Shown here: positions 14,833 through 58,829 of the stretch, piece by piece
How positions within the stretch are numbered: position 1 is the first letter of the stretch
Layout: each line of letters begins with the position of its first letter
Assembly: GCA_964414185.1 (NCBI GenBank)
Contig: CAYPVK010000002.1
Location: 82,296-146,295, forward strand
DNA: 64,000 nucleotides
Source of the DNA: an uncultured Lactobacillales bacterium
GTDB taxonomy: Bacteria; Pseudomonadota; Alphaproteobacteria; CAAHEQ01; UBA3637
Direction: 5' to 3'
Made by a program: the position numbers and the translations under genes
The notes under the pieces: model-generated
What the model was told of the DNA's origin: nothing
Database searches by the model: none
What the model saw: only the letters and a program-made list of their open reading frames with translations

Positions 14833-17800
14833 ATGATCCCACAAATGTTGAAAGACAAGCGCTTTTTGCCCTTGCTCATCCCCAATTTTTTATCCGCTTT
14901 AAACGATAATTTTATTCGGTATGTTTTTTTGTTCTTTGTAACGTATAAAATGACGCAAGGCAGTGCTTTGTTAATTATTTCCGCCGTTATTTTGTATGCT
15001 TTGTCGTTCAGTTTTGCATCCGTTTTTGCCGGCCAAATCGCCGATCGCATGTCTAAGACGAAATTTATGCAAAGCATTCGCATTTCGGAAATCGCCGTTA
15101 TGATGATGGCATTGATCAGTTTGTCATTGGATTCCAGATGGTTATTCATGTTGATTGTTGCGTCCATGGGGATTGTATCGGCATTTTTACGTGTCGGCAA
15201 TAATTCGATTTTGCCTGTGCTTGTTGCCGAAAAAAAATTGAATATGGGCAACGTTTGGTTGAAAATTTCTTCAACATTCGGCGCTTTGGCCGCAGTCGGT
15301 TTTTTGACATCCATCTTAAAATTTGATGCCGCTTATTACGTTGTTACGTTCATCGCATTTGCTTTGTCGGCGGTCAGCTTTTTAATTACCTTAAAATTGC
15401 CGATGACCGATGCGGCGGATTCGGAAGCACCGTTTTATAAAAATCCTCAGAAAGCTTTCGGTGTCGTGGCCGATTATTTGAAAAACAAGTATGATATTTG
15501 GTTGTATATTGTCGGCATTTCATGGTTTTGGATTTTGGCAACCGTCGTAGCGGTTTTTTCCGCCGAATACGGCCGAGCCGTTTTGAATGCCAGATGGTCC
15601 GTCGTGATGTATTTGTCGAGCATTTTCGGGCTCGGATATATCATCGGTGCGTTTTTATATGCCAAAGTCACGCATAAAAACAATATAGGCACTTGGACGG
15701 CGTTGGTATCGTTTTTGATTTCCTTGTTCATGTTCGATTTGATTATTGCCAGCACCGATGTGGTGCATGACCCGTCTCAAAAAGCCATTACCGTTGCCAA
15801 AATGTTCACAACCGATTTTGATTATTGGCGCATCATGGTTGACGTATTGGTATTGGGCGGCTTGTCGGCATTCTTCATTATTCCGTTTTATACGCTGTTG
15901 CAAATCAAATCCGCACATAAAATGCTCGGCCGTGTAATAGCTTTTTCGTCGATGATTAACGCCATAGCGGTTATGGGTGCGTTCTTGGTTGTGCTCAGCT
16001 TTCGGTCGCTCGGGTTTGATTTGTTGACCGTTTTGGCATTGTTTGCGGCGTTCAATTTGCTGATGGCGGTTTATATGATACGGTTGTTGCCGCTTGCGTC
16101 CCGTCGGCAATTATTCAAAAAGATTTTTCGTACATTGTTTAATGCCCGTATAGAAGGGTTGGAAAATTTGGCGATTGCCGGACCGCGCGCGTTGATTATT
16201 CCGAACCATTCGTCTTATTTGGACGTCTTGTTGATTTCGGCGTTTATTGACAAGAAAATTTTGTTGGCGATTGACGAAAAATTAATGCAACGTCCGTTTA
16301 TTAAGTTCATGACGAATTTGGTCGATGTGAAACCGATGGATGCGGTCAGCCCCTTTGCCGTTAAAGAAATGTCCGAAGAACTTAAAAAAGACCAACTGTG
16401 CATGATTTTGACGGAAGGGTTTATCGAAGGCGGCAACACGCGCATGAAAATTTACGAAGCACCCGCTTTGATGGCGGTCAAAGGGAATGCGCCGATTTTG
16501 CCGATTCGCATCGACGGCGCCAAGCACGCAATTTTTTCACGCGTGTTGAAAAACAAAGCGGATTTCCGTTGGTTCCCCGAAGTTTCAATTAATATTTTGG
16601 AACCCGTTTCTTTTGATTATAATGAAAAAGAATTGACGACTCGTGAAATCCGCGAACAATCCAGTTCCAAATTGTATAACATTATGTTTGACATGGTGTT
16701 TGACAGCTATAAAACGGATATGTCAATATTCACGGCTATCGCACGTTCCATGAAAATGGCCGGTCGTTTTAAACCCGTCATGGAAGATACGGCGCGGCAT
16801 CCCGTCAGGTTTATGGGCGTATTTTTGAAATCGTTTGTTTTGGGGACATTGATTAACCGTGCAATTCCGAATGACAAATATGTGGGCGTGATGGTACCGA
16901 CATCCAATACATGCGCTTTAACGGTATTCGGGCTGCAAGCTTATAACAAAGTACCGTGCATGATTAATTTTTCATCGGGTCCGAAACAAGTTATCGCGAC
17001 ATGTAAAACTGTTGGTTTAAAAACGGTCGTTACGGCCAAAAAAGTTGTGATGTTGGCTAAATTGGAACCGCTGGTTGAAGAAATCAAAGCTGCCGGCATC
17101 AATATTTTGTATTTGGAAGATTTAAAAGATTTGCTTAAATTTTCCGACAAATTGTTTGGAATTTGGAGTGCTTTTTGTCCCGAATCCGCTTATAAAAAAA
17201 CATCGGGCGGCAAGGTGAAAGGGTCCGATACGGCGGTTGTGTTGTTTACATCCGGTTCGGAAGGTATGCCTAAGGCCGTATTTTTGTCACATAGCAACAT
17301 TTTGTCAAATTGTTATCAAGTCCCGTCCCGTTTTGATGTGTTGCCGAACGATGTGTTTTTGAACTGTTTGCCGATGTTTCATTCGTTCGGATTGGGGGCC
17401 GGTATGATTTTGCCGTTGTTAATGGGCGTTAAAACGTTTTTATATCCGACACCGTTGCATTATCGCATTATCCCCGAAATTTGCGCATCCGTCAAAGCAA
17501 CGATTTTCTTTGGTACGGATACATTCCTGGCGGGTTATGCCAAATGTGCGAATCCGTATGATTTCAACAGTTTGCGCATTGTTGTGGTCGGTGCCGAAAA
17601 ATTAAAGGATGAAACGCGCAAAATTTGGTCGGAAAAATTCGGCGTGCGTATTTTGGAAGGGTACGGAGCAACCGAATGTTCTCCGTTTGTTTCCGTCAAC
17701 ACATTCTTACATCAAAAGCTCGGTTCCGTCGGCCGTTTGCTGCCCGGCATGAGTTACGATTTGCGTGAAGTCCCCGGTATCAAGGAAGGTAAAGAATTGT

Positions 17801-18258
17801 TGATTAAAGGTCCGAATATCATGCAAGGGTACATGCGTTATGAAAAACCGCTTGAACTCGACCCGCCGAAAGACGGTTGGTATGATACGGGCGATATCGT
17901 TGAAATTGACAAAGACGGCTTTATCTTTATCAAAGGGCGTTCGAAACGTTTTGCCAAAGTCGGCGGTGAAATGGTGTCATTGCTCAGCGTTGAAACGGTT
18001 ATTCAAAAAAAATGGCCCGGCGTCATTGCGGGGGCGGTCAACATCCCGGATAAGAAAAAAGGCGAACAAATCGTCTTGATTACGACCAGCAAAGACATTA
18101 ATAAAGAAGAGTTGATTTTGGCGTTTAAGGCAGCCGGCGTTACCGAATTGGGTATTCCGTCGAAAATTATCGTTACGGATAATCCGCCGCTTTTGGGTAC
18201 CGGAAAATTTGACTATGTTCGCGCCAAAGAATTGGCAAATGCCGAAGTAAACGGTTAA
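14833..18258 (+). CDS. aas: Tripartite fusion of lysophospholipid transporter LplT (MFS), 2-acyl-GPE acyltransferase and acyl-ACP synthetase (LplT-Aas)
   Basis: 1141 aa. The N-terminal ~400 aa is a polytopic MFS-like domain. It is followed by PlsC acyltransferase motif I (PNHSSYLDVLL, HxxxxD) and then an AMP-binding domain (TSGSEGMPKAV, GYGATECSP). Confidence 0.8.
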   Translation: MIPQMLKDKRFLPLLIPNFLSALNDNFIRYVFLFFVTYKMTQGSALLIISAVILYALSFSFASVFAGQIADRMSKTKFMQSIRISEIAVMMMALISLSLDSRWLFMLIVASMGIVSAFLRVGNNSILPVLVAEKKLNMGNVWLKISSTFGALAAVGFLTSILKFDAAYYVVTFIAFALSAVSFLITLKLPMTDAADSEAPFYKNPQKAFGVVADYLKNKYDIWLYIVGISWFWILATVVAVFSAEYGRAVLNARWSVVMYLSSIFGLGYIIGAFLYAKVTHKNNIGTWTALVSFLISLFMFDLIIASTDVVHDPSQKAITVAKMFTTDFDYWRIMVDVLVLGGLSAFFIIPFYTLLQIKSAHKMLGRVIAFSSMINAIAVMGAFLVVLSFRSLGFDLLTVLALFAAFNLLMAVYMIRLLPLASRRQLFKKIFRTLFNARIEGLENLAIAGPRALIIPNHSSYLDVLLISAFIDKKILLAIDEKLMQRPFIKFMTNLVDVKPMDAVSPFAVKEMSEELKKDQLCMILTEGFIEGGNTRMKIYEAPALMAVKGNAPILPIRIDGAKHAIFSRVLKNKADFRWFPEVSINILEPVSFDYNEKELTTREIREQSSSKLYNIMFDMVFDSYKTDMSIFTAIARSMKMAGRFKPVMEDTARHPVRFMGVFLKSFVLGTLINRAIPNDKYVGVMVPTSNTCALTVFGLQAYNKVPCMINFSSGPKQVIATCKTVGLKTVVTAKKVVMLAKLEPLVEEIKAAGINILYLEDLKDLLKFSDKLFGIWSAFCPESAYKKTSGGKVKGSDTAVVLFTSGSEGMPKAVFLSHSNILSNCYQVPSRFDVLPNDVFLNCLPMFHSFGLGAGMILPLLMGVKTFLYPTPLHYRIIPEICASVKATIFFGTDTFLAGYAKCANPYDFNSLRIVVVGAEKLKDETRKIWSEKFGVRILEGYGATECSPFVSVNTFLHQKLGSVGRLLPGMSYDLREVPGIKEGKELLIKGPNIMQGYMRYEKPLELDPPKDGWYDTGDIVEIDKDGFIFIKGRSKRFAKVGGEMVSLLSVETVIQKKWPGVIAGAVNIPDKKKGEQIVLITTSKDINKEELILAFKAAGVTELGIPSKIIVTDNPPLLGTGKFDYVRAKELANAEVNG

Positions 18259-39398: not shown

Positions 39399-40910
39399 AT
39401 GCAAGTCGCAACATTCCCGAGACCGGAACTGATTCAAATGGCCGATACGTTGGCCAGAGAAAAAGGCATTACGAAAGAAGCCGTTTTGGAGGCTATGGAA
39501 CAAGGCATTTCCAAGGCCGGGCGTTCAAAATACGGCCCCGAATATGATATTCGTACGCAAATTGATTCCAAAACGGGCGCCATTACAATGGCCCGCTATA
39601 TCACGGTGGTTGAGGAAGTTGAAGACGAATTTACGCAAATGACTTTGGCAGATGCCCGTAAAAAAGACAAAACGTTAAAAGTCGGCGATGAAATCGTTGA
39701 CCCGTTGCCGCCGATGGATTTCGGACGTATTGCCGCCGGTACGGCCAAGCAAGTGATTATGCAAAAAGTGCGCGATGCCGAACGTTTGCAACAATACAAT
39801 GAAATGAAAGACAAAAAAGGCGAAATCGTCAACGGTACCGTTAAACGTGTCGAAGCGGGCAATTTGGTCGTTGAATTGGCCGGTCGCGTTGAAGCGATGT
39901 TGCGCCGCGACGAATTAATTCCGCGCGAAAATTACCGCGTCGGCGACCGTGTGCGCGCTTTGATTTTGGACGTGCGTTCGGAAATTAAAGGGCCTCAGGT
40001 GTTTTTGTCGCGTTCGCATCCCGATTTCTTGGCCAAGTTGTTTGTGGCCGAAGTGCCCGAAATTTATGACGGATTGATTGAAATCAAATCTGTGGCTCGC
40101 GACCCGGGTTCTCGTGCCAAAATCGCCGTTTGGTCGAAAGATTCTTCCGTCGATGCAAGGGGCGCTTGTATCGGTATGCGCGGTATCCGTGTCCAAGCGG
40201 TTGTGACCGAATTGCAAGGCGAAAAAATCGATGTTGTCAATTGGTCGGCCGACCCGGCGACATTTATCGTGAATGCTTTGGCACCGAATGAAGTGTTGAA
40301 AATCGTTATTGATGAAGAAGCCGGCAATGTCGAAGTCGTTTTGTCCGAAGAACAGTTGTCTTTGGCCATCGGGCGGCGCGGTCAAAATATCCGATTGGTT
40401 TCCCAATTGACGGGATGGCACATTGATATGATGAATGAAGCTCAAGAATCCGAACATCGTATCGCGGAAACAAAAGAACGCGTCGATTTGTTCATGCGCG
40501 CTTTGGACATTGACGATATGATGGCGCATATTTTGATACAGGAAGGTTTTGCCAAAGTCGAAGACATTGCCTTTATCGCGTTGGAAGAATTAACAAGCAT
40601 TGAAGGTTTTGACGAAGAATTGGCGACCGAATTGCAAAACCGCGCGAAAGCTTATTTAATTGCCGAACAAGAACGCCAAACGACAAAAGTTCAAGAATTG
40701 GCTGTTGCCGACGATTTGAAAAACTTTGACGGTTTGACGTTGGATATGGTTGTCAAATTGGGCGAAGCCGGCGTTAAAACATTGGATGATTTGGCTGATT
40801 TGGCCGGTGACGAATTGCAGGAAATCGTCGGTGACGCTTTAAGCGACACAGATGCAAACGCCATTATTATGAAAGCAAGGGAACATTGGTTTGAAAAGGA
40901 CGCACAATAA
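39399..40910 (+). CDS. nusA: Transcription termination/antitermination factor NusA
   Basis: 503 aa with S1 and KH domains and C-terminal acidic repeats, followed by infB in the conserved arrangement. Confidence 0.95.
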   Translation: MQVATFPRPELIQMADTLAREKGITKEAVLEAMEQGISKAGRSKYGPEYDIRTQIDSKTGAITMARYITVVEEVEDEFTQMTLADARKKDKTLKVGDEIVDPLPPMDFGRIAAGTAKQVIMQKVRDAERLQQYNEMKDKKGEIVNGTVKRVEAGNLVVELAGRVEAMLRRDELIPRENYRVGDRVRALILDVRSEIKGPQVFLSRSHPDFLAKLFVAEVPEIYDGLIEIKSVARDPGSRAKIAVWSKDSSVDARGACIGMRGIRVQAVVTELQGEKIDVVNWSADPATFIVNALAPNEVLKIVIDEEAGNVEVVLSEEQLSLAIGRRGQNIRLVSQLTGWHIDMMNEAQESEHRIAETKERVDLFMRALDIDDMMAHILIQEGFAKVEDIAFIALEELTSIEGFDEELATELQNRAKAYLIAEQERQTTKVQELAVADDLKNFDGLTLDMVVKLGEAGVKTLDDLADLAGDELQEIVGDALSDTDANAIIMKAREHWFEKDAQ

Positions 40911-41496
40911 ACATAAAACGCCCGACGGGCACAAAACATGCTTTGTCAGCAAGGAAACGTTTTTGCGTGAGGAGATGCTGCGCTTTGTGGTATCTGACGA
41001 TAAAACGGTTTTTTTTGATGCGGCCGAAAAATTGCCCGGGCGCGGCATGTGGCTGAAGGCCGATTATCGGACCTTAAAAAATGCTGTTGAAAAACGTATT
41101 TTTTTCAAGGCTGCCAAAGGGACGGTCAATATTCCCGCCGATTTGGTCGAACAAGTCGAAAATCAATTAAAAGGCAGAGTGTTGTCTTTGTTGGGATTGG
41201 CGCGTAAAGCGGGTGTGCTTGTTTTCGGGTATGAAGGCGTTAAAAAAGTATTGGCAGCGCATGAAGCCGTCTTGGCTTTTGAAGCGTCCGATTCGTCCGA
41301 ACGCGAACGCGATAAGTTATATCATTATGAAAAATTAAAGGTATATGATATTTTTACGCGCGAAGAATTGGGGCGTGTTGCCGGTACGGATGCCGTAGCG
41401 CATATGGTTGTGTCGGGCGGCAAGGTTGCCGACGAAATAAATCAAAATGTGCATAAATTAGTTTTATTTTTGCAAAGTAAAGGAGAAACGCTATGA
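40891..41496 (+). CDS. ylxR: YlxR (DUF448) RNA-binding protein fused to an L7Ae-like domain
   Basis: A KTCFVSKE...LRFVV motif (the YlxR RxC...LIRFV pattern) is followed by an L7Ae-like fold ([14 protein letters not shown]). It lies between nusA and infB. Confidence 0.7.
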
Positions 41497-43928
41497 CAGA
41501 TGGGAAAAAGCCGTTGACGTTGTCGGGGAAAACGTTGGAGCTTAAAAAGACTTTGACTTTGGGCGGCCAAGTGCGCCAAAATGTCGGCGCCGGCAAAAGC
41601 AACGTTGTTCAAGTGGAAGTGCGCAAAAAACGTGTCATTACGTCCGAACAAAGTACGCATAGCCTTTCAAAAGATGCTGCGGAAAAATTGAAATTGGTTC
41701 AGGAGGCCGAACGTGTTGCCGCTCATGCCCGAAAATTGGAAGAAGAACGCCAAGCCAAATTAAAAGCCGAACAAGAGGCACGTAAAAAAGCCGAAGAAGA
41801 AGCTGCCGAAATCGCCCGCAAAGAACAAGAAGCGGCCGCGGCCGTCGCCAATGTTCAAGAATTGCAAAAAACGGAAGAAGCGCCGAAAAAAGAAGCTAAA
41901 AAATTTGCCGATAAATCGTCATCCGATATGGGCGGATTCGACCGTAAAAAAGAAGAACGCGAAACGCAGGAACGCAGCTACAAAAACCGTTATGAAGAAC
42001 GCCGCAGTTCGGGCAAAATCAATGTGAACGCTTATGTCGGCGGTGATGATGACGATGATGAACAAGGCGGCCGCGGGCATCGCCGGTCATTGGCATCGAT
42101 TAAACGGGCGCGCGAAAAAGAAAGATTGAAACATTTGGAATCTTTAAAAACCGCCGAAAAAGTCGTGCGCGAAGTTGTTATCCCCGAAACGATTACCGTA
42201 CAGGAATTGGCTAACCGTATGTCCGAAAAAGGTGCAACGGTCGTTAAAGAATTGATGAAAATGGGCATGATGGTGACCATTACGCAAACCATTGATGCCG
42301 ATACCGCCGAATTGGTGGCAACGGAACTCGGCCACATTGTGAAACGTGTTGCCGAATCCGATGTCGAAGAGTTGTTGAAAACGCATGAAGACAAACCCGA
42401 AGAATTTATGCCGCGCCCGCCCGTCGTTACGGTGATGGGGCATGTTGACCACGGTAAAACGTCATTGTTGGATGCTTTGCGCCATGCAAACGTTGTCGCG
42501 GGCGAATCGGGCGGCATTACGCAACATATCGGTGCTTATCAGGTGGCTTTTAAAGACGGGCAAAAGGTCACGTTTATTGATACGCCGGGGCATGAAGCGT
42601 TTACTGCGATGCGTGCTCGTGGTGCCAAAGTGACGGATATTGTCGTGTTGGTTGTGGCAGCCAATGATTCGGTCATGCCGCAAACGGTGGAAGCCATTCA
42701 CCATGCCAAAGCGGCCGGCGTGCCGATTGTCGTGGCGATTAATAAAATCGATGTTGTCGGCGCCAATCCGAACAAAGTGCGCATGGATTTGTTAAATCAC
42801 GATGTTGTGGTTGAATCGATGGGCGGCGACGTGATGGATGTCGAAGTGTCGGCCAAACAAAAATTGAACTTGGACAAATTGATTGAAACAATTTTGTTGC
42901 AAGCGGAAGTTTTGGAACTTAAAGCTCCTGTCGAACGGTCGGCTGAAGGCGTTGTCGTGGAGGCCAAAATGGACAAAGGACGCGGGTCGGTTGCGACCGT
43001 TTTGGTGAACAAAGGCACGTTGCATGTCGGCGATATTTTCGTATCGGGGCAAGAATGGGGTCGCGTGCGTTCATTGTTCAACGATAAAGGCGAACGTGTC
43101 CAAACGGCCAAGCCCGCCGAGCCGGTTGAAGTTATCGGGTTGCAAGGGACGCCCGCCGCCGGCGACGATTTCGTCGTGGTCGATACGGAAGCTCAAGCGC
43201 GCGAAGTTTCGGGGTATCGTCAGCGCAAAGCCCGCGAAGCCATGCAGGTTAAAACTTTGGGCGGCGCCGAAGGGTTGTTTGCCAAAATTAAAGCCGGCGA
43301 AATTAAAGAATTGCCCGTTGTCATTAAGGGCGACGTGCAAGGGTCGGTTGAAGCGCTTAACGGCATCTTGTCCAAAATTGCCAATTCAGAAGTTAAGATT
43401 CGCATTTTGCACAGCGCGGTCGGTGCGATTAATGAATCCGACGTGACGTTGGCACGCGCCAGCAAGGCGATTATCATCGGCTTTAACGTGCGCGCAAATC
43501 CGACGGCACGCGAATTGGCCAAACGCGATGGTGTCGATATCCGTTATTATTCGATTATCTATGACGTTGCCGATGACATGAAGTTGGCGGTCGAAGGGTT
43601 GTTGTCGCCCGAATTGCGTGAAAAAGAATTGGGCATGGCCGAAGTGCGCCAAGTTATTTCTATTTCCAAAGTCGGCAAGGTTGCCGGTTCCATGGTTAAG
43701 GAAGGCTTGGTCAAACGCGGTGCCAAGGTACGTATTATTCGCGACGGCGTTGTCATTTATACGGGCGCGCTCAGCCAACTCAAACGCTTTAAAGATGACG
43801 TTAAAGAGGTCAAAGAAGGGTTTGATTGCGGCATGAGTTTTGAAAACTATGACGATGTCAAAGTCGGCGATATGATTGAATGTTACGAAATTGAAGAAAT
43901 CGCCGTCAAATTGAAATTGGACGCTTAA
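41493..43928 (+). CDS. infB: Translation initiation factor IF-2
   Basis: 811 aa with a charged low-complexity N-terminus, a G domain ([24 protein letters not shown]) and C-terminal beta-barrels. Confidence 0.95.
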
Positions 43929-43945: not shown

Positions 43946-44350
43946 ATGGCAAAAGATTTTGCATCCAAAGAGCCCTCTCAACGCCAATTGCGCGTGGCGG
44001 AAGAAATCCGCCATGTGTTGGCGCGGATGATGAGCCAAAACGATTTGTTTATCGAAGGGTTAAAGCCTGCGTATATCATGATTACGCAAGTTAAAATTTC
44101 GCCCGATTTGGCATATGCAACCGTTTTTGTCCGCGGTATCGGCGATGTCGATACAAATACCCAAGTGGATTTGTTAAACGCCCATAAGGGGCCGTTTCGC
44201 AAAGCGGTGGGAAAACAAGTGCGTTTGCGTATCGTGCCGCAATTGATTTTTTTGCAAGACAACAGTTTTGACGAAGCGTCGCATATTGCCGATTTACTCA
44301 ATAACCCGGTGGTTAAAGCCGATATTGAAAAATATAAGGATGAAGAATAG
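43946..44350 (+). CDS. rbfA: Ribosome-binding factor A
   Basis: 134 aa, RQLRVAEEIRHVLARMM, a KH-like fold typical of RbfA. Confidence 0.88.
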   Translation: MAKDFASKEPSQRQLRVAEEIRHVLARMMSQNDLFIEGLKPAYIMITQVKISPDLAYATVFVRGIGDVDTNTQVDLLNAHKGPFRKAVGKQVRLRIVPQLIFLQDNSFDEASHIADLLNNPVVKADIEKYKDEE

Positions 44351-44360
44351 GGGAAAATGC

Positions 44361-44963
44361 ATGGCATTATCGGAGCAAATTAATTTGACGGTCGACCAAT
44401 TGGCGCCGTTTGCCAAGTTGCCGATGCCGTTTGATTGGCAACAAGTTAGCATGCAATTAAACCACGCCGACAAACGGCATATATCGTATTGTTTTGTTGT
44501 CCAAACCGATATGGGCGAACAAAGTGTTGGGACGGTGGCTTTTGATAAAACGGATGTGCCGCGGTTTTATGAACAAGACGGCAATGTGCAAAAAATTGAC
44601 GGCGCGCATTGGGAACAAGCGATTGTCATGCACGATGAAGAAGGGGTTCATTACGGATCGTACGGTTTGACAATGGCCGGTGTATTGGCTGTCAGCCGCC
44701 ATTTGTGCGATACGGGTTTAAGGGATGATGTTTTGGTTGTTCGTACGGACGAATCGAACATAGCGGCGCAAAAATTTTATCGTAAAGCGGGATTGGTTTG
44801 GCATCCGGAATTTCAACCCTATGCCGATAAAAAAGGAAATACCGAATTAATTCCGACGCCGGGGCGGATGTTGAAAACAACGCTCGCCGAATCGGTAAAA
44901 GGTATGGAAAAATACCGCCGGACAAATGTGGCTTTGCCCAAAATGTTGGCGCGCGGCCGCTGA
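44361..44963 (+). CDS. Divergent GNAT-fold acetyltransferase-like protein, paralogue A
   Basis: It has a CoA-binding-like segment (YGSYGLTMAG...VLVVRTDESNIAAQKFYRKAGLVW), which is the GNAT motif A/B pattern. It is a clear paralogue of the gene at 45861-46484, sharing KLPxxF and HWExxIxxxD...YGxYGLTM...NIAxxKF. Confidence 0.6.
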   Translation: MALSEQINLTVDQLAPFAKLPMPFDWQQVSMQLNHADKRHISYCFVVQTDMGEQSVGTVAFDKTDVPRFYEQDGNVQKIDGAHWEQAIVMHDEEGVHYGSYGLTMAGVLAVSRHLCDTGLRDDVLVVRTDESNIAAQKFYRKAGLVWHPEFQPYADKKGNTELIPTPGRMLKTTLAESVKGMEKYRRTNVALPKMLARGR

Positions 44964-45067
44964 CAAACGCAAAAAACAACCTTTAAAGCGTTTAAGATAT
45001 AAACATTTTGGCATTTTTATTAAAAATATGTTATTATTTTAAATATATTTTAAAGGAAAAGAGGCGC

Positions 45068-45859
45068 ATGGCTTTTAAAAAACAAATTGATTTGGATTTG
45101 ACGGATGTTCAAGCGTTTGCCGTCCAACCGTGTGAGTTGCCCGAAGCGCTTTATTTGCGGCGTTTTGAAGATTATGACGAACAAGCTTTGTTGGATTTTT
45201 ACCGTCAAAACGCAGATGTTCCGTTTTTCGGCATAACGCCGGAATTTAAAGGAAACGATTTTGCTTTGCAACGCGAACAAATGGCGAAATTTATCGATTA
45301 TTATAAGACGGCTTTTGAAAAACAAGCAGCCTTTCATTACGGATTGTTCGAAAAAACGAAAGGTGTTGAAAAGCTTGTCGGCCGTTTGGGATTGACGCCG
45401 AGGTACAAAATCATTACATCAAAAGAAAATCGGACGGGTGACGGTGTTCGGGAACTTGAAACGGTTGATATCGTTGTGTTTATCGACCAATCGGCTTCGT
45501 TTTCTTATGGCAAAAAAGGGTATACGAAAGCGGCCGTTTATGCGCTGCTTAATGAAGCATTTCGAAACGGACATCAAAAAATTGATGCCGTTATCGATAA
45601 AAAGAATGCGCGGTCGATAAAATTTTTTAAAGGTTTAGGGTTTGATTTTCCAATGCAAAAGCGCACGATTATCAATATACAGGGCCGCGGGCGTTATTTT
45701 GACGTCAATTTACAAAATTTCCATACGGCGCACGGGATTGTCCCCGAAATTTTAAGCCGCCTTGACGGTTTGAGAAAAAATCCGATGAACGAAGTGGCCG
45801 GCGATAAAAAAAGAACGGGCGCAAAAACTTTTTTGCCGCGAAATAATCAAAGGGGGTAG
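45068..45859 (+). CDS. GNAT-fold acetyltransferase-like protein, paralogue B (more divergent)
   Basis: Its C-terminal motif GKKGYTKAAVYALLNEAFRNGHQKIDAVIDKKNARSIKFFKGLGFDF is a canonical GNAT motif A/B. A ribosome-binding site (aaaggaaaagagg) lies upstream of the ATG at 45068. Confidence 0.6.
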   Translation: MAFKKQIDLDLTDVQAFAVQPCELPEALYLRRFEDYDEQALLDFYRQNADVPFFGITPEFKGNDFALQREQMAKFIDYYKTAFEKQAAFHYGLFEKTKGVEKLVGRLGLTPRYKIITSKENRTGDGVRELETVDIVVFIDQSASFSYGKKGYTKAAVYALLNEAFRNGHQKIDAVIDKKNARSIKFFKGLGFDFPMQKRTIINIQGRGRYFDVNLQNFHTAHGIVPEILSRLDGLRKNPMNEVAGDKKRTGAKTFLPRNNQRG

Positions 45860-45860
45860 A

Positions 45861-46484
45861 ATGTCATTTGCACAAATGGTTCCAATTGAAAAAGCATTGC
45901 TTGAAAAATATGCGCATATAAAATTGCCGGCCGATTTTCAAGGGGCTTATTTAAAAACCTATGATGAAGTACCGGGGCGGTTTATCGGGTATGACATTAT
46001 GTGGCGCCAAGGCGGCCGCATCTATAATGCCGGCAATATCAGCGTCACAAAAAGGTTATTGGAACCGTTTGTCAAAGATTGTAAAGGCGATGTGCATCAA
46101 CTGACAGGCCCGCATTGGGACAGGCATATTATTATATTCGATTCGAAAAGTCCGAATAAAGAACGATACGGGCGGTATGGTTTGACAATGTCGGCTCTTT
46201 ATAAATTTACCGAACAGTTGGCGCAAAACGGTATTGATAAAACTTTCAGCATTATTAAGGAAAATAACATCGCGTCGCTTAAATTTTCACAGAAATTTTT
46301 AGGGGTGGCAAATCGTCTGCGTGTTGTGGAAGAAGAAATTAATGCCTTTGGTAAAACGGTTTATAAAGAACAACCCATTTTTATTTATGATACGCCGGTA
46401 AAAGAAACGCTGGCGAAATTAGACGCATACACTACCCCCCCCAATTTGCGGTTAAAAAAGTTGTCGGAGCATCGCGGTAAATGA
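45861..46484 (+). CDS. Divergent GNAT-fold acetyltransferase-like protein, paralogue C
   Basis: It reads RYGRYGLTMSALYKFTEQLAQNGIDKTFSIIKENNIASLKFSQKFLG and is a paralogue of A. It starts 2 bp after B and overlaps truB by 4 bp. Confidence 0.6.
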   Translation: MSFAQMVPIEKALLEKYAHIKLPADFQGAYLKTYDEVPGRFIGYDIMWRQGGRIYNAGNISVTKRLLEPFVKDCKGDVHQLTGPHWDRHIIIFDSKSPNKERYGRYGLTMSALYKFTEQLAQNGIDKTFSIIKENNIASLKFSQKFLGVANRLRVVEEEINAFGKTVYKEQPIFIYDTPVKETLAKLDAYTTPPNLRLKKLSEHRGK

Positions 46485-47404
46485 ACAAAATTCAAAACGA
46501 TTTAAACGGTTGGTTGATTATTGACAAAGAATACGGTATGGGTTCCACGCAAGTGGTCGGCAAACTCAAATGGTTGTTAAAACCGAAAAAAATCGGGCAT
46601 GCCGGCACGCTTGACCCGTTGGCAACCGGCGTGTTGCCGATTGCGCTTGGCAAAGCGACCAAGACGATTCCTTATGTGACGGACGGGTCGAAAACATATG
46701 AATTCGCCGTCAAGTGGGGTGCCGAAACGTCAACGGATGATGTTCAAGGGGACGTTGTTTTGACTTCGGATAAACGCCCGACAATGGCTCAAATAGAAGA
46801 AATGTTGTCGCATTTTATCGGCGATATCACGCAAATACCGCCCAAGTATTCGGCGCTTAAAATCAACGGCAAACGCGCTTATGAATTGGCGCGTGCGGGG
46901 CAAGAAGTGGACATCAAACCGCGCCGCATTCATATTGAAAATTTAAAAATTCTGCATCATGACGATATAAAGGGGGAAACGCATTTTGAAGTAAATTGTT
47001 CGAAAGGCACATATGTGCGCACTATCGGGCACGACATGGGGCGGCATTTAGGGTGCTTCGGGCATATTGTAAAGTTGCGCCGTACCAAATGCGGGCCGTT
47101 TAAAATCACGGATGCGATTTTGCTTGCAAAATTGGAAAAAAATGATTATAATTCGAACGCTTGCGGTATTTTGCCCTTGGGAACCGCACTGGGCGACATC
47201 CCGGTGCTGGCGGTAAACAAGGAAGAAGTCGCACTTTTGATACAAGGCCGGCCGATTTTATCGAAAGGCAGGGCGCAAAACAAAAAGGTCACGGCCGAAA
47301 ATGTTTTCGCGCTTCAATATTTGAATCAAATGATGGCATTGGCAAAGCTTGAAGACGGCATGCTTAAACCGTTCAAAGTTTTGTCCGATTGTTTAAATGA
47401 ATAA
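46481..47404 (+). CDS. truB: tRNA pseudouridine(55) synthase
   Basis: It has a catalytic Asp motif (GHAGTLDPLATGVLPIALGKATK) and a C-terminal PUA domain. Confidence 0.93.
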   Translation: MNKIQNDLNGWLIIDKEYGMGSTQVVGKLKWLLKPKKIGHAGTLDPLATGVLPIALGKATKTIPYVTDGSKTYEFAVKWGAETSTDDVQGDVVLTSDKRPTMAQIEEMLSHFIGDITQIPPKYSALKINGKRAYELARAGQEVDIKPRRIHIENLKILHHDDIKGETHFEVNCSKGTYVRTIGHDMGRHLGCFGHIVKLRRTKCGPFKITDAILLAKLEKNDYNSNACGILPLGTALGDIPVLAVNKEEVALLIQGRPILSKGRAQNKKVTAENVFALQYLNQMMALAKLEDGMLKPFKVLSDCLNE

Positions 47405-47425: not shown

Positions 47426-47695
47426 ATGTCGATCAGCAAAGAAAAAAAGCAACAAATCATTAAAGAATATGCCAAAACGCCTGCGGACACGGGTTCTGCC
47501 GATGTTCAAGTCGCCATTTTGTCGGCTGAAATTGAAGAATTGTCCGAACACATGAAAGTCCACAAAAAAGACTTCCATTCCCGCCGCGGATTGTTGGCAA
47601 AAGTTGCCAATCGCCGCAGATTGTTGGCTTATATCAAAAGACAAGATCAAGCCAGATACGAAGAATTGATTTCGAAATTAAATCTGCGTAAGTAA
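47426..47695 (+). CDS. rpsO: 30S ribosomal protein S15
   Basis: 89 aa, MSISKEKKQQIIKEYAKTPADTGSADVQVAIL...; canonical S15. Confidence 0.95.
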   Translation: MSISKEKKQQIIKEYAKTPADTGSADVQVAILSAEIEELSEHMKVHKKDFHSRRGLLAKVANRRRLLAYIKRQDQARYEELISKLNLRK

Positions 47696-47910: not shown

Positions 47911-50085
47911 ATGAGTATGTTTACGACATTTAAAAAAGAAATCGAATGGGGTGGCAAAACGTTGTCCGTAGAGACCGGGAAAATTGCCCGCCAAGCCGAA
48001 GGTTCCGTTATCGTGCGTTACGGTGATACGGTTGTTCATGCCGCCGTTGCCGCTAAAAAAGAAACGCCCGAAACGTTTGAAGATTTTATTCCGTTGACGG
48101 TTAACTATATTGAAAAAGCGTATGCCGCCGGACGTATTCCGGGGGGCTTTTTCAAACGCGAAGCCAAACCCAGCGAATACGAAATTTTGGTTTCCCGCTT
48201 AATCGACCGTCCGATTCGCCCCTTGTTCGCCAAAGGCTATAACAATGATACGCAAATTACATGTACGCTTATCAGCTATGACGGACAAACGCAAAGCGAT
48301 ATCGTTGCGATGATTGCCGCATCGGCCGCTTTGACGATTTCGGGCTTGCCGTTTTTAGGCCCCATCGCCGGTGCCAGAATTGGTTACATTAACGGTCAAT
48401 ATGCGTTGAATCCGTCTGTTGACGCGATGAAAGATTCCGCATTGGATTTGGTTGTCGCGGGTACTGCCCAAGGCGTTTTGATGGTGGAATCCGAAGCCAA
48501 AGAATTGTCCGAAGAAGTCATGCTCGGTGCGGTGGAATTCGGTCACGAATCCATTAAGCCCGTTATCGACATGATTATCGCTTTGGCCGAAGAATGCGCC
48601 AAGGAACCTTGGGAAGTCAAAGAAGAACCCGCCGAATATGAAACGGTGCGCGCTCAAATCATGGAAAAATTGGGCGATGAAATCAAGGCCGATTACAAAA
48701 TCCACAATAAATTGGAACGTCAAGACGCCATTCACGCGACTCGTGAAAAAGCGCGCGCTTTGTTTGAAGAAAACGAAGCCGAAGCGGCTATTGTCGATAA
48801 AGTTTTCCACGCGATTGAAGCTCGCATTTTGCGCGATGCCGTTTTGGATACCGGTGTACGCATTGACGGGCGCGATACGAAAACGATTCGCCCGATTGAA
48901 TGTCAAGTCGGTTTATTGCCCAAAACGCACGGGTCGGCTTTGTTTACGCGCGGCGAAACGCAAGCTATGGTTGTCGCCACTTTGGGAACGGGCGAAGACG
49001 AACAAATTATGGATACGCTCAACGGCGAATATAAAGAAACATTCTTATTGCATTACAATTTCCCGCCGTATTCGGTCGGCGAAACGGGTCGTATCGGCGC
49101 CCCCGGCAGACGCGAAATCGGGCACGGCAAATTGGCTTGGCGCGCGATTCATCCGATGATGCCGAGCAAGGAAGAATTCCCGTACACGGTACGCGTGGTT
49201 TCCGAAATCATGGAATCGAACGGGTCTTCGTCAATGGCAACCGTTTGCGGATCGACTTTGTCGTTGATGGATGCGGGCGTGCCGATGAAAAAGCCGGTGG
49301 CCGGTATTGCGATGGGATTGATTAAAGAAGGCGACCGTTTCACGGTTTTGTCCGATATCTTGGGTGATGAAGACCACTTGGGCGATATGGACTTTAAAGT
49401 TGCCGGTACGAAAGACGGCGTGACCGCGTTGCAAATGGATATTAAAATTACGTCCATTACGTTTGAAATTATGAAAATCGCGTTGGCACAAGCGTTGGAA
49501 GGCCGCATGCATATCCTTGGCAAAATGGCCGAAGTGTTGCCCGCTCCGCGCAGTGAAATCAGTCCGAATGCCCCGCGCATTATTTCAATGAAAATCGATA
49601 AAGAAAAAATCCGTGACGTTATCGGCACGGGCGGTAAAGTCATTCGTGAAATCGTTGAAAAAACAGGTGCTAAAATTGATATTGACGATGACGGCAATGT
49701 TAATATCGCTTCCGTTTGCGGCGAATCGGGACAAGCGGCTTTGCAATGGATTAAAGGCATTGTCGAAGAACCCGAAGTCGGCAACATTTATGACGGTACG
49801 GTCGTCAAAATCATGGATTTCGGCGCATTTGTGAACTTCATGGGTTCGCGCGACGGATTGGTCCATATTTCCGAGATGGCTCCGAATCGCGTTGAAAAAG
49901 TAACCGATGTCGTTAAAGAAGGCGATAAAGTCAAGGTCAAATACTTAGGCGCCGATAACCGCGGCAAAATGAAATTGTCGATGAAACGCGTCAATCAGGA
50001 AACGGGCGAAGAAATCCCGTTCGAAGACAAGGCGCGTGACGGCGAACGCAAAAAACATCGTCATAAAGAAGGCGATGCCGAATAA
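47911..50085 (+). CDS. pnp: Polyribonucleotide nucleotidyltransferase (PNPase)
   Basis: 724 aa with two RNase PH domains, a KH domain and an S1 domain, plus a basic C-terminal tail. Confidence 0.95.
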
Positions 50086-50168: not shown

Positions 50169-51200
50169 ATGAAAATTTTAACGGCTGTATTTTTAAGCAT
50201 GTTTTTTATCAATGTTCAAGCGTCGGCGCAAACCGAATCGGTTGATGCCGAAGCCGTTATTGTTAATGAACAAACGGCATCTGATGAAACGGCCCCAAAC
50301 AATCAATCCGTTGCGAATGTTCAAGGAAATGTCAAAGGGGATGAAGATGCTTCCGCGCCTTTTTCATGTGATGACCCGAATGCTTTGGCGATAGAACCCG
50401 AAGCATGTGCCAAATGCGAAAACCGCCATATGAAATATAAAAACAGCCTGTTGTATGAAGCACAATATTGTGTTTTAAAGAAATGTCCCGCAGATAAACC
50501 TTTGGCGGATTCCAAAGGGGCTTGCCATGGTTGCAATGAAGATTTCGCCGATGTTGACAGGTATGCAACGGATTGTGCGCCTTGTGCGAATCGCGTTTTG
50601 GAAGGGGAAGACATACATAAAAAATGCGTGGTAAAAGTGCCATGTGACGATCCGTTATCGTTCAATGTGAAAAAATTACAATTACCGTGTTCGTTGTGTG
50701 AAAATCGCGAAGTTATTCAAACATCCAAAGGAAAACGGTGTGCATTGAAAGTTTGTCCCGTCGACAAACCGATCAGGGGAGGTGCTTCGGCCAGTTGTTA
50801 TGCGTGTGATATTTTGTCTGTCGTAACGGTTGGTGCACCCGAAGATTGCGCCGTTTGTGGAAATCGCAAAGTCGTTGAAGCAGAAGGAAAATATTATTGC
50901 GCTTTAAGCACATGTCCCGAAGAATACCCGAAACGTCTTGAGAACGGCAAATGCGCCGGCGAAGCCGAATATGCCTATGCAATGCGTGAAAAAGGCATAT
51001 TGGATTATGGTGACGAGATTGCCGGTAAGGTCGCTCATTTCCTTTTGGACATTTTTGAAGATTTGGGCATTAATGATTTTTGCAGAACATATATTTCGCC
51101 GATTTTGGTATCTATTTTGGCACCTGTGGGAAAAGTTTTCGAATTCATATTCGGATTGATTGTTATTATCGGCATGGCTTTTGGCCCTCTTTTTATTTAG
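50169..51200 (+). CDS. Secreted, C-terminally membrane-anchored Cys-rich repeat protein (novel family)
   Basis: It has a signal peptide ([20 protein letters not shown]). Four or more tandem modules follow, each with CxxCxNR...(K/Y)C(A/V)L(K/S)xCPxDKP spacing; examples are CAKCENR, CAPCANR, CSLCENR and CAVCGNR. The C-terminus is a hydrophobic ~35-aa segment ([32 protein letters not shown]). Confidence 0.6.
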
Positions 51201-55979: not shown

Positions 55980-58829
55980 ATGAAATTGAAAAATTTGATT
56001 CAAAATACGGATGAAAAATGCGGTGCCGTTGAAATTGACAATATTACATCCAATTCAAACGATGTCCGCGCGGGTACTTTGTTTGTCGCGCTGAAAGGCG
56101 TTAAAACCGACGGTGCGGCTTTTATTCCCGATGCAATCACAAAAGGGGCAGCAGCCGTGTTGGCCGACCGTGAGGTGGCTTCGGATATTCCCGTTGTCCG
56201 TGTTTTGAATGCACGGGTGGCGATGGGGCAAATTGCCGATAAATTGTATCCGTCCGACGGATTAATCAAGGCAGCCGTTACCGGTACGAACGGGAAAACG
56301 TCTTGTGTCAATTATGTTGCCGCATTGTTAAACGGTTTGGGTATTTTATCGGCCGCTTTCGGCACCATCGGCGTGCAATCGCCCGTATTGAATATCGCAG
56401 GATCAATGACAACGCCCGATGCCGTAACCGTGCATAAAATGTTACATGAATTGAATGATGCGGGCGTAAAAGTCGTCGCGATGGAAGCTTCCAGCCATGG
56501 GTTGGACCAAGACCGTTTGGTGGGGATTGATTTTGCGGTGAGCGCTTTTACAAACATAACGCAAGACCATTTGGATTATCACGGCGATATGGCGGCTTAT
56601 TTCAACGCCAAAATGAAATTGTTTTGCGAACGTACGGCCGCGAACGGCATTGTCGTTTTAAATGCCGATATCCCTGAATTTGAAACGATGCATGCACAAA
56701 TTTTGCAAAAAGGGTTGCGTGTTATTTCTTACGGCGTGAACGGTAACGAATTGAAGTTATTGTCGCGTACGGTTACGCCGACAGGGCAAACGATTGAAGT
56801 AAACGCATTCGGAAAAAAATATATGTGCGATTTGAACATCGTCGGCGATTTCCAAGTATCAAACGTGCTGTGTGCCGTCGGCATGTGTATCGGTTTAAAC
56901 GATATTTATAAACTGTTCGGCGAAACAACCGAGGCGCAATTTATTGATAAAATTTTTGCCTTACTGCCAACTTTGCAAGCGCCCGCGGGACGGTTGGAAT
57001 GTGTGGGACATTTAAAAAACGGCGCGACCGTGTATGTCGATTATGCGCATACGCCCGACGCTTTGGAACGCGTGTTAAAAACAATGCGCCCGCATACACG
57101 GCATGAATTGGTGTGCGTGTTCGGTTGCGGCGGTGACAGAGATAAAACCAAACGCCCGTTGATGGGGGCAATCGCGCAAAAATATGCCGACCGCGCCTAT
57201 TTGACCGACGATAATCCGCGCACCGAAAATGCCGCCGATATCCGCGCACAAATCAAAGCGGCGGCACCTCAGTCCATTGAAATCGGCGACCGCCACATCG
57301 CGATTGATGAAGCCGTACGTTCGTTGCAAGAGGGCGACGTGCTGGTTATTGCCGGCAAAGGGCATGAAACGGGGCAAAAAATCGGAGATACCGTTTATGC
57401 GTTTGATGATAAAATCGAAGCACAACTTGCCATAATGCGTGTCGAACAAACGCCGCTGTGGACTTATGACGAATTGCGGGCTTGTTTGGGGGACGCCGTA
57501 CCGTCGGGGGCGTGCGCTTTCGGCATTTCGATTGATACGCGTACGTTAAAAATCGGTGATATGTATGTTGCCCTTCGCGGCGAACGGTTGGACGGACATG
57601 ATTTCGTTGCCGCCGCGGTGCATAAAGGGGCAAGCGTTTGTTTGGTTGACCATCAAATTGCGAGTGTGCCCGAATGTAAACAAATCATTGTGACAGATGT
57701 TCAACCGGCGTTTGAAAAAATGGGGGCGTTTGCCCGTAACCGCAGCGACGCCGCCTTTATCGAAATTACCGGCAGTTCGGGCAAGACAACGACAAAAGAA
57801 ATGTTGAAAACCGCGTTGACAGCGCAAGGAAATACTTATGCCACGGCGGGCAATTTAAACGGCAAAATCGGCGTGCCGTTGACATTGACACGCATGGGGC
57901 GCGATATGCAATATGCAATTATCGAAACAGGCATGGACCATTTGGGGGATTTGACGAACTTGTCAAAAATGGTGCGCCCGAACGTATCGATTATCACGAT
58001 GGTGGGGCCGGCTCATTTGGCATATTTTAAAGACGTTGCCCAGATTGCCGAAGCGAAAAGCGAAATTTTTATCGGCCAGGAAAAAGACGGTACGGCTATC
58101 ATCAATGCCGACAGCCCTTATTGCGCTTTTTTGCGCGATAAAGTCGTTTCAAACGGTATTCGCAATATTATTTCTTTCGGCAAAAATGAACAAGCCGGTT
58201 TCAGATTGTTAAACGCGATGCCGAACGGTGATAAAACGATGGTCAATGCAATGGTCGGCGGTGAAAAAATATCTTATTGCATCGGATTTTTGGGCGAACA
58301 TTTTGCGATGGATTCTTTGGCGGTTTTGGCAGCGGTTGATGCCCTTGGGGCCAGCGTGAAACAAGCGGCTGCCGATTTGTCGCAAACATCGGCGGTTATC
58401 GGGCGCGGCGCGGTGCAAAAAATCACGTTGGCGGACGGGCGTTCGTACGATTTAATCGACGATTCTTATAACGCCAACCCGGCGTCGATGGCGGCATCCG
58501 TCGGTACGTTGGGCATGCATGAAAATACCGTTAAAATCGCACTGCTCGGCGATATGAAAGAATTGGGCGGCGGCGAAATCGAAATGCATACGAATTTATT
58601 ACAAAATTTATTGGACAATCATATTTCAAAGGTTTATGCTGTAGGGACTTTGATGAAGCATTTGTTTGATATATTGCCGTCCGATATGAAAGGGGCATGG
58701 CGGCAAACGCCCGAAGAAATGGCGGGTGTTGTTTTAAACGAAATGCCTGACGGTGCCGTGTTGTTGGTTAAATCTTCCCAAAGCACGGGTTTGAACAAAA
58801 TTGTTCCAACTTTAAAAGGGATGCGATAA
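55980..58829 (+). CDS. murEF: In-frame fusion of MurE (UDP-MurNAc-tripeptide synthetase) and MurF (UDP-MurNAc-pentapeptide synthetase)
   Basis: 949 aa. The MurE part has a P-loop (TGTNGKTS), and its end (...AGKGHETGQKIGDTVYAFDDKIEAQLAIM) is typical. With no stop between them, a MurF N-terminus follows (~57440; ...SIDTRTLKIGDMYVALRGERLDGHDF...ITGSSGKTTTKEML). Confidence 0.85.
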   Translation: MKLKNLIQNTDEKCGAVEIDNITSNSNDVRAGTLFVALKGVKTDGAAFIPDAITKGAAAVLADREVASDIPVVRVLNARVAMGQIADKLYPSDGLIKAAVTGTNGKTSCVNYVAALLNGLGILSAAFGTIGVQSPVLNIAGSMTTPDAVTVHKMLHELNDAGVKVVAMEASSHGLDQDRLVGIDFAVSAFTNITQDHLDYHGDMAAYFNAKMKLFCERTAANGIVVLNADIPEFETMHAQILQKGLRVISYGVNGNELKLLSRTVTPTGQTIEVNAFGKKYMCDLNIVGDFQVSNVLCAVGMCIGLNDIYKLFGETTEAQFIDKIFALLPTLQAPAGRLECVGHLKNGATVYVDYAHTPDALERVLKTMRPHTRHELVCVFGCGGDRDKTKRPLMGAIAQKYADRAYLTDDNPRTENAADIRAQIKAAAPQSIEIGDRHIAIDEAVRSLQEGDVLVIAGKGHETGQKIGDTVYAFDDKIEAQLAIMRVEQTPLWTYDELRACLGDAVPSGACAFGISIDTRTLKIGDMYVALRGERLDGHDFVAAAVHKGASVCLVDHQIASVPECKQIIVTDVQPAFEKMGAFARNRSDAAFIEITGSSGKTTTKEMLKTALTAQGNTYATAGNLNGKIGVPLTLTRMGRDMQYAIIETGMDHLGDLTNLSKMVRPNVSIITMVGPAHLAYFKDVAQIAEAKSEIFIGQEKDGTAIINADSPYCAFLRDKVVSNGIRNIISFGKNEQAGFRLLNAMPNGDKTMVNAMVGGEKISYCIGFLGEHFAMDSLAVLAAVDALGASVKQAAADLSQTSAVIGRGAVQKITLADGRSYDLIDDSYNANPASMAASVGTLGMHENTVKIALLGDMKELGGGEIEMHTNLLQNLLDNHISKVYAVGTLMKHLFDILPSDMKGAWRQTPEEMAGVVLNEMPDGAVLLVKSSQSTGLNKIVPTLKGMR

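Follow-up and report, generated by a model that had tools for sequence, protein, structure and literature searches.

Predicted GNAT paralogues between rbfA and truB in uncultured Alphaproteobacteria

Why should three genes lie between rbfA and truB, which elsewhere stand side by side? The question is raised by a stretch of 64,000 nt (hereafter the window; contig CAYPVK010000002.1, positions 82,296–146,295, assembly GCA_964414185.1) from an uncultured bacterium assigned to the Alphaproteobacteria in the GTDB taxonomy, where genes here called A, B and C occupy this junction. The first-pass annotation, made from the sequence alone, described them as divergent paralogues with a GNAT fold, possibly forming an undescribed family. 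Our analysis shows that A, B and C are constrained protein-coding genes and not chance open reading frames (ORFs), and sequence profiles and structural modelling place them as very divergent members of the GNAT acyltransferase superfamily.

Fold, kinship and constraint of the inserted genes

The product of gene B exceeded the Pfam cut-offs for both PF13302 Acetyltransf_3 (36.5 bits, cut-off 25.4) and PF00583 (28.9 bits, cut-off 20.7), and is classified by these matches as an Acetyltransf_3 (RimJ/RimL-like) GNAT of full length. Matches of A to GNAT families in Pfam were sub-threshold (16.8 bits, E 0.012), and no GNAT match in Pfam was obtained for C. A and C are paralogues according to BLASTP (E 3e-14, 24% identity), C shows weak pairwise similarity to B over its C-terminal half (E 8e-6), and no significant pairwise match was found between A and B. 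The two groups were joined by hhalign comparison of the A/C-family profile with the B-family profile (probability 96.2%, E 2.5e-9, 144 columns), and PF13302 was matched at E ≤ 0.1 by 10 of 19 diverse family members.

Modelled with AlphaFold2 on a 12-sequence alignment, C reached a pLDDT of 82 and a pTM of 0.79, and all structure matches of this model in Foldseek were GNAT proteins (TM-scores 0.30–0.42, best E 4e-5). The model of B was poor (pLDDT 52) and unsuitable for a fold search, and was used only for the order of its secondary-structure elements, which fits GNAT; the succession β1-α1-α2-β2-β3-β4-α3-β5-α4-β6-β7 characteristic of the fold was recovered. The two family profiles, searched against PDB sequences, gave weak generic GNAT matches alone (best E 0.0036), and searches of PHROGs gave only weak generic acetyltransferase matches. 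The closest neighbours in sequence or structure were MJ1062, YncA, TTHA1799, BH2621, DfoC, FdhC, SpeG and AAC(2'). The GNAT fold proposed in the first-pass annotation is thus borne out by the scores of B above the Pfam cut-offs, the profile link between B and A/C, and the model of C, while the proposal that divergent paralogues interrupt an otherwise conserved junction is upheld by the comparisons among A, B and C and by the control loci described below.

Exact copies and orthologues of the inserted genes were found in other assemblies, with orthologues present in at least five related genomes; the orthologues of A are 47–93% identical to it, and those of B 58–90%. Ratios of nonsynonymous to synonymous substitution (dN/dS), calculated by the Nei–Gojobori method (NG86) from comparisons of the window with three related genomes, were 0.19 for A, 0.21–0.24 for B and 0.11–0.21 for C, and the same comparison for operon neighbours yielded 0.19 for truB and 0.08–0.11 for rbfA. 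At the amino-acid level the figures were 70–79% for A, B and C versus 74–82% for TruB, the divergence of the three proteins tracking that of TruB. The existence of orthologues elsewhere and a dN/dS range of 0.11–0.24, like that of truB, therefore identify A, B and C as real genes. The GC content of B and C (0.41–0.42) differs from that of A (0.48); the lower values could stem from another origin or another level of expression.

The anatomy of the family was derived from an alignment of 19 sequences with 15–30% identity, in which residues are numbered as in C. A short N-terminal β-α element (residues ~6–18), common to all members, precedes GNAT β1 (LPxxF..LYL). In the B-type about 45 residues corresponding to α1-α2 follow β1, while in the A- and C-types β1 leads straight to β2. 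The first-pass annotation had envisaged a separate N-terminal domain of about 100 residues without recognisable motifs; since the alignment and the models place this region as β1–β4, it is not a new domain and is instead the N-terminal half of the GNAT fold together with the short family-specific β-α element. Helices α1-α2 normally shape the acceptor site, and their loss in A and C would open this site, which would fit a macromolecule as substrate or dependence on a partner.

Only four residues (G58, G107, N136 and G148) are invariant in all 19 members, with Y44, T109 and A111 being near-invariant. The conserved residues are mostly located in the β4-α3 loop ([YF]GxxGxT), where motif A lies, and at the beginning of α4. 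Motif A of the family reads [YF]-G-x-x-G-[LIMFY]-T, with the invariant G107 as its central glycine and non-canonical outer positions. A and C appear to keep the coenzyme A (CoA)-binding core, comprising the β4-α3 loop and the α4 asparagine, and would presumably bind CoA.

All family members at the junction end in a basic tail. In A, B and C the C-terminal 20 residues carry a net charge of +3 to +5, and the tails end in ARGR in A (44901–44960), NNQRG in B (45797–45856) and EHRGK in C (46422–46481). The tail of C was modelled as disordered, and a basic tail is missing from the family members P0019, P0023 and P0027, the last two of which are encoded away from the junction. The isoelectric point (pI) is 9.4–9.5 for B and C (9.5 for C) and 6.4 for A. 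No hydrophobic N-terminus, signal peptide or transmembrane segment was found in A, B or C (maximum KD19 0.41–0.89), and the three proteins are predicted to be soluble and cytosolic.

The rbfA–truB junction in the window and in other lineages

The ORF list gave the following layout, in which the coordinates claimed for A, B and C in the first-pass annotation proved correct. The assignment of rbfA was aided by a match of PF02033 RBFA to the identical gene in locus L001, and that of truB by matches of PF01509 and PF16198 to its orthologues.

39399–40910, + strand: nusA
40891–41496, + strand: ylxR-like gene
41493–43928, + strand: infB
43946–44350, + strand: rbfA (30S ribosome-binding factor A), bordering the insertion upstream
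44361–44963, + strand: gene A, 200 aa, predicted short-type GNAT paralogue without α1-α2 (A-type)
44964–45067, + strand: A–B intergenic spacer, 104 nt, AT-rich, with a σ70-like promoter candidate
45068–45859, + strand: gene B, 263 aa, predicted full-length GNAT of the long type with α1-α2 and a basic disordered C-terminal tail
45861–46484, + strand: gene C, 207 aa, predicted short-type GNAT paralogue without α1-α2 (C-type)
46481–47404, + strand: truB, tRNA pseudouridine-55 synthase, downstream flank
47426–47695, + strand: rpsO
47911–50085, + strand: pnp

The motifs quoted earlier were also present: KLPxxF, YGxYGLTM and NIAxxKF are common to A and C, the motif given as HWExxIxxxD reads HWEQAIVMHD in A and HWDRHIIIFD in C, and the string cited from the C-terminus of B was found in its sequence. 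Inspection of the sequence showed gaps of 10 nt between rbfA and A, 104 nt between A and B, and 1 nt between B and C, while the stop codon of C and the start codon of truB overlap as ATGA, through which truB is predicted to be translationally coupled to C. The proposal that all the genes are coupled to one another and to truB therefore stands for B/C and C/truB, and A is tightly packed against rbfA as well, but it fails for A/B, which are separated by the AT-rich spacer with its promoter-like element. Rfam and tRNA scans of the window returned no match.

The promoter candidate in this spacer consists of TTGGCA (45008–45013), an 18-nt spacer and an extended -10 element, TGt TATTAT, ending at 45037, and scores 10/12 with the TG; a Shine–Dalgarno sequence lies ahead of the B start. 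The block TTGnnn...TGnTAT(T/G)AT is conserved ahead of B across five genomes, in two of which A is lacking and the block sits in the rbfA–B spacer, and it has been kept despite near-saturated synonymous sites between the genomes (dS 0.5–1.6). No terminator-like hairpin was found after A on the + strand of the spacer. A, B and C would be expressed within an operon rimP-nusA-infB-rbfA-[A-B-C]-truB-rpsO-pnp, A by read-through from rbfA and B-C-truB additionally from the predicted internal promoter.

To assess how the junction is built in general, JGI metagenomes were scanned with an RbfA alignment, which yielded 80 control rbfA loci; truB was located in them by the catalytic motif GHxGTLDPxAxG, detection by phmmer having given 19 loci. 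The motif was present downstream of rbfA in 65 of the 80 loci, and in 64 of these 65 it lay ~100–200 nt past the rbfA end, so that truB is directly adjacent, as the first-pass annotation had presumed for this junction. The sole exception was locus L066, where another gene lies between rbfA and truB. No match to the family HMM was found in any of the 80 control loci. The intervening gene of L066 (4466–5869, - strand) is a reverse-strand ORF of 468 aa from a high-GC bacterium, is not kin to the GNAT family, and, judging by its N-terminal dinucleotide-binding motif, is presumably a flavin amine-oxidase-like protein.

Members of the family occupy the rbfA–truB junction in 11 of 13 lineages examined (the window, L004–L008, L010, L011, L013, L097 and L098), with one to three members in each and identities down to ~15–30%. 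The arrangements are as follows.

A-B-C: the window, UBA7488 (L006) and L005
B-C: L004 and L007
A-type only: L008/L009
A-type and long type: L010
C-type only: L011, L097 and L098
B-type only: L013

Within GTDB a close TruB was found only in the metagenome-assembled genome "Alphaproteobacteria bacterium UBA7488", the nearest named genome, which carries the same A-B-C insertion. The survey of the junction in relatives, which the first-pass annotation had recommended, thus revealed an insertion that is clade-specific, accessory and strikingly faithful to this site.

A neighbour-joining tree resolved four types, as listed.

A-type: A, P0016 and P0017
long B-type: B, P0026 and X280 of L010
C-type: C and P0018–P0022
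stand-alone pair: P0023 and P0027

A, B and C are assigned on this tree to ancient paralogue types, each with orthologues in other lineages. A recent local tandem triplication was considered and rejected, since orthologues of the A-, B- and C-types each occur elsewhere. P0027 (L014 2656–3333) shares a C-terminal tail of ~31 aa, at 64% identity, with an unrelated neighbour of 387 aa (L014 4098–5261, - strand); the shared tail, ...APYKxxKDxSKxDFxTLKLYxxKK..., resembles a modular C-terminal signal, and the organism is AT-rich (33% GC).

The family is small. Word-indexed searches returned 3 clusters for C, 7 for B and 7 for A, and a full HMMER scan of 1.84 billion representative proteins with the A/C profile gave 12 matches at E ≤ 1e-3, of which one is a false positive from a repeat protein and another a 49-aa remnant left by a deletion in A. 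The remnant, metagenome protein P0025, joins the first 31 residues of A to the last ~18 and has arisen by internal deletion; like the lack of A in L004 and L007, it is in line with A being dispensable in some relatives. No name for the family was found in any source, the sole NCBI entry being a "hypothetical protein", and neither Pfam nor NCBIfam has an entry specific to it; with the 12 matches among the 1.84 billion representatives, this agrees with the earlier suggestion of an undescribed family. As judged from these searches, the family is restricted to a small clade of uncultured Alphaproteobacteria. A tblastn search of 72,556 plasmids with B gave no match, and nothing was found in the literature on GNAT genes at the rbfA–truB junction or on UBA7488.

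Possible functions of the inserted proteins

The most likely role, which we put forward tentatively and by analogy with the Rim enzymes, would be cytosolic acyl-CoA-dependent N-acylation of a component of the translation apparatus. The GNAT fold, the conserved residues of the CoA loop, the cytosolic character of the proteins, their embedding in the operon and their fidelity to the locus all point in this direction. The proteins would transfer an acyl group, probably acetyl, from acyl-CoA to an amine on this component; the candidate target is a ribosomal protein of the 30S subunit during its maturation, as in the case of RimJ, and a tRNA-linked substrate is rated as less likely. RimJ, which belongs to the Pfam family matched by B, is both an acetyltransferase of S5 and an assembly factor found on pre-30S particles (PMC2440530), and the loss of RbfA is suppressed by S5 mutations (PMC4509935). 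The presumed enzymes would act as homodimers in lineages with a single copy, and possibly as long/short heterodimers where a B-type gene adjoins an A- or C-type gene; the 1-nt distance between B and C suggests co-production, so that a heterodimer is conceivable, and the single-type lineages indicate that each type can stand alone.

In a bolder and unlikely version of this scheme, the family would represent a new class of GNAT proteins tied to the junction and linked to ribosome biogenesis or tRNA maturation, with a B-type catalytic subunit and A/C subunits devoid of α1-α2 forming homo- or heterodimers. These could dock via their basic C-terminal tails on the pre-30S particle or on the tRNA substrate of TruB, and either acylate a component not known as modified in model bacteria or act as assembly factors derived from acetyltransferases. 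The short forms without α1-α2 would be an unusually minimal GNAT architecture. RimI, RimJ and RimL, the ribosomal-protein enzymes defined by N-α-acetylation of bS18, uS5 or bL12, are themselves poorly understood, RimJ being also a 30S assembly factor, and a family that has kept its junction while its members diverged to 15–30% identity suggests itself as a new, lineage-specific modifier of the translation machinery.

A, B and C are less than 20% identical to the RimJ/RimL proteins (PF13302) and differ from them in the extra N-terminal β-α element and the basic C-terminal tail, as well as in the missing α1-α2 of A and C; among the NCBIfam equivalogs for RimI/J/L, the rimI model TIGR01575 gave 14.9 bits for A against a cut-off of 86.4, and none of the three proteins matched a RimJ or RimL model at E ≤ 10. 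The genes lie inside the nusA-infB operon, unlike the rim genes of E. coli, which are not in that operon. The structural-genomics proteins MJ1062 (3eo4), TTHA1799 (2z0z), BH2621 (2qml) and PA3270 (1yre) are alike at superfamily level only, at 5–18% identity and a TM-score of 0.4; being uncharacterised, they offer no function to transfer. The eukaryotic and archaeal enzymes NatD/Naa40, Naa10 and Naa50, which act at the ribosome, show only generic likeness of fold (TM-scores 0.33–0.37, 9–13% identity), with no sign of substrate-binding elements in common. Aminoglycoside-type AAC(6') and AAC(2') enzymes were matched weakly (NCBIfam AAC(6')-31, E 0.0089 for B; AAC(2') in Foldseek, E 5e-4 for C), and no resistance-gene context surrounds A-B-C.

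Several observations weigh against a translation-linked acyltransferase. The nearest outgroups, L017, L018 and L020, whose RbfA is 55–63% identical, have truB directly after rbfA; combined with the dispensability of A within the clade, this implies that the function is accessory. Fidelity to the locus could result from one ancestral insertion followed by vertical inheritance in a narrow clade and not from functional coupling, and the only members found elsewhere than at the junction are the distant P0023 and P0027, on AT-rich contigs. The GC content at third codon positions (GC3) of B and C is 0.41, versus 0.50 for A and 0.50–0.53 for the flanking operon genes. As to catalysis, motif A departs from the canonical pyrophosphate-binding loop Q/RxxGxG/A that follows β4, the general-acid tyrosine of α4 is retained only in A, and the low Foldseek TM-scores would be compatible with A and C being non-catalytic.

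In a somewhat unlikely alternative, A, B and C are ordinary GNATs acting on small molecules (for example polyamines, amino acids, antibiotics or sugars), and their position stems from one ancestral insertion into a junction that is well expressed and tolerates insertions, with subsequent vertical inheritance, local duplication and differential loss. Its appeal is that the nearest neighbours listed above are uncharacterised or small-molecule GNATs, that B has weak AAC(6') matches, that synteny in so narrow a clade, with outgroups lacking the genes, may be inertia, and that B and C have their own conserved promoter-like element and a GC3 below that of their neighbours. It accords less well with the retention of the junction by members at 15–30% identity, even where one type survives, and with the coupling of C to truB; moreover, the AAC(6') scores are far under the NCBIfam cut-offs (16 bits versus 385, and 11.6 bits versus 415), and the presumably open acceptor site of A and C would suit a macromolecular acceptor better. 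Should the location prove to be mere synteny, the family would just add an uncharacterised subfamily to the GNATs of uncultured Alphaproteobacteria and would matter little; it would become more interesting if a translation-linked substrate or a role in assembly were demonstrated. Another, distinctly unlikely explanation holds that one or more of the proteins, especially A and C, are not catalytic at all and serve as ribosome-assembly or RNA chaperone-like factors, comparable to RimJ, whose part in assembly does not depend on its acetyltransferase activity, or as regulatory partners of B. Suppression of the S5(G28D) mutation by RimJ is independent of catalysis (PMC2440530). The absence of α1-α2 from A and C, the lack of a Pfam GNAT match and the low TM-scores of C, the non-canonical first and last positions of motif A, the basic character of C (unlike A) with basic C-terminal tails on both, and the 1-nt gap between B and C, suggestive of stoichiometric co-production, would be consistent with this explanation, but family-wide invariant residues in CoA-binding elements would be unexpected for a pseudoenzyme, and short-type members standing alone at the junction in several lineages have no need of B.

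Were the proteins secreted effectors, for instance type IV secretion substrates acylating host targets, the net-positive tails of A, B and C could be secretion signals, in line with the VirB4/TrbE-like and VirB11/T2SSE-like ATPases encoded in the window, with the tail that P0027 shares with its unrelated neighbour, as in modular secretion signals, and with the known GNAT effectors of intracellular bacteria. We consider this very unlikely, given that the genes are embedded in a core housekeeping operon, coupled to truB and as strongly constrained as truB, that no N-terminal signal peptide was found in A, B or C, that a pair of ATPases does not amount to a functional type IV secretion system, and that the P0027 tail is unlike the RGR-type tails of the junction members. 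The analogy with the TacT/AtaT/ItaT toxins drawn in the first-pass annotation fares worst, and a toxin acetylating aminoacyl-tRNA, with B (or A/C) in this part and a neighbouring paralogue as antidote, is scarcely credible. These aminoacyl-tRNA acetyltransferases share with the inserted proteins the GNAT fold and, presumably, a target in translation, as the neighbourhood of A-B-C would suggest, but no closer similarity to them than to other GNATs was detected, and their two-gene toxin-antitoxin architecture is not matched: the neighbours are rbfA, paralogous GNATs and truB, with neither a DUF1778/RHH-type antitoxin nor a small DNA-binding ORF. PADLOC found no match to a defence system, no homologue of B was found in the plasmids searched, and stable syntenic inheritance, purifying selection and the existence of single-copy lineages all disfavour a toxin.

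Other features of the window

The two secretion-type ATPases that bear on the effector explanation are scattered in an otherwise housekeeping region. The VirB4/TrbE-like ATPase (PF03135; 3994–6426, + strand) stands alone beside an RlmA-type methyltransferase, and the VirB11/T2SSE-like ATPase (37482–38624, - strand) lies just upstream of rimP.

Directly after pnp, an ORF of 343 aa (50169–51200, + strand) has no significant Pfam family and one weak zinc-ribbon match; the same place in relatives is taken by different unannotated ORFs, in L004 one of 183 aa and in L005 one of 307 aa. Two long ORFs have composite domain structures. One, of 949 aa (55980–58829, + strand), contains two each of the domains Mur_ligase, Mur_ligase_M and Mur_ligase_C and appears to be a murE-murF fusion in an mraW-ftsI-mur-mraY-ftsW-murG-murC cluster. 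The other, of 1141 aa (14833–18258, + strand), joins an MFS transporter, an acyltransferase and an AMP-binding enzyme, in a domain order that we take to be like that of the LplT-Aas fusions of lysophospholipid recycling.

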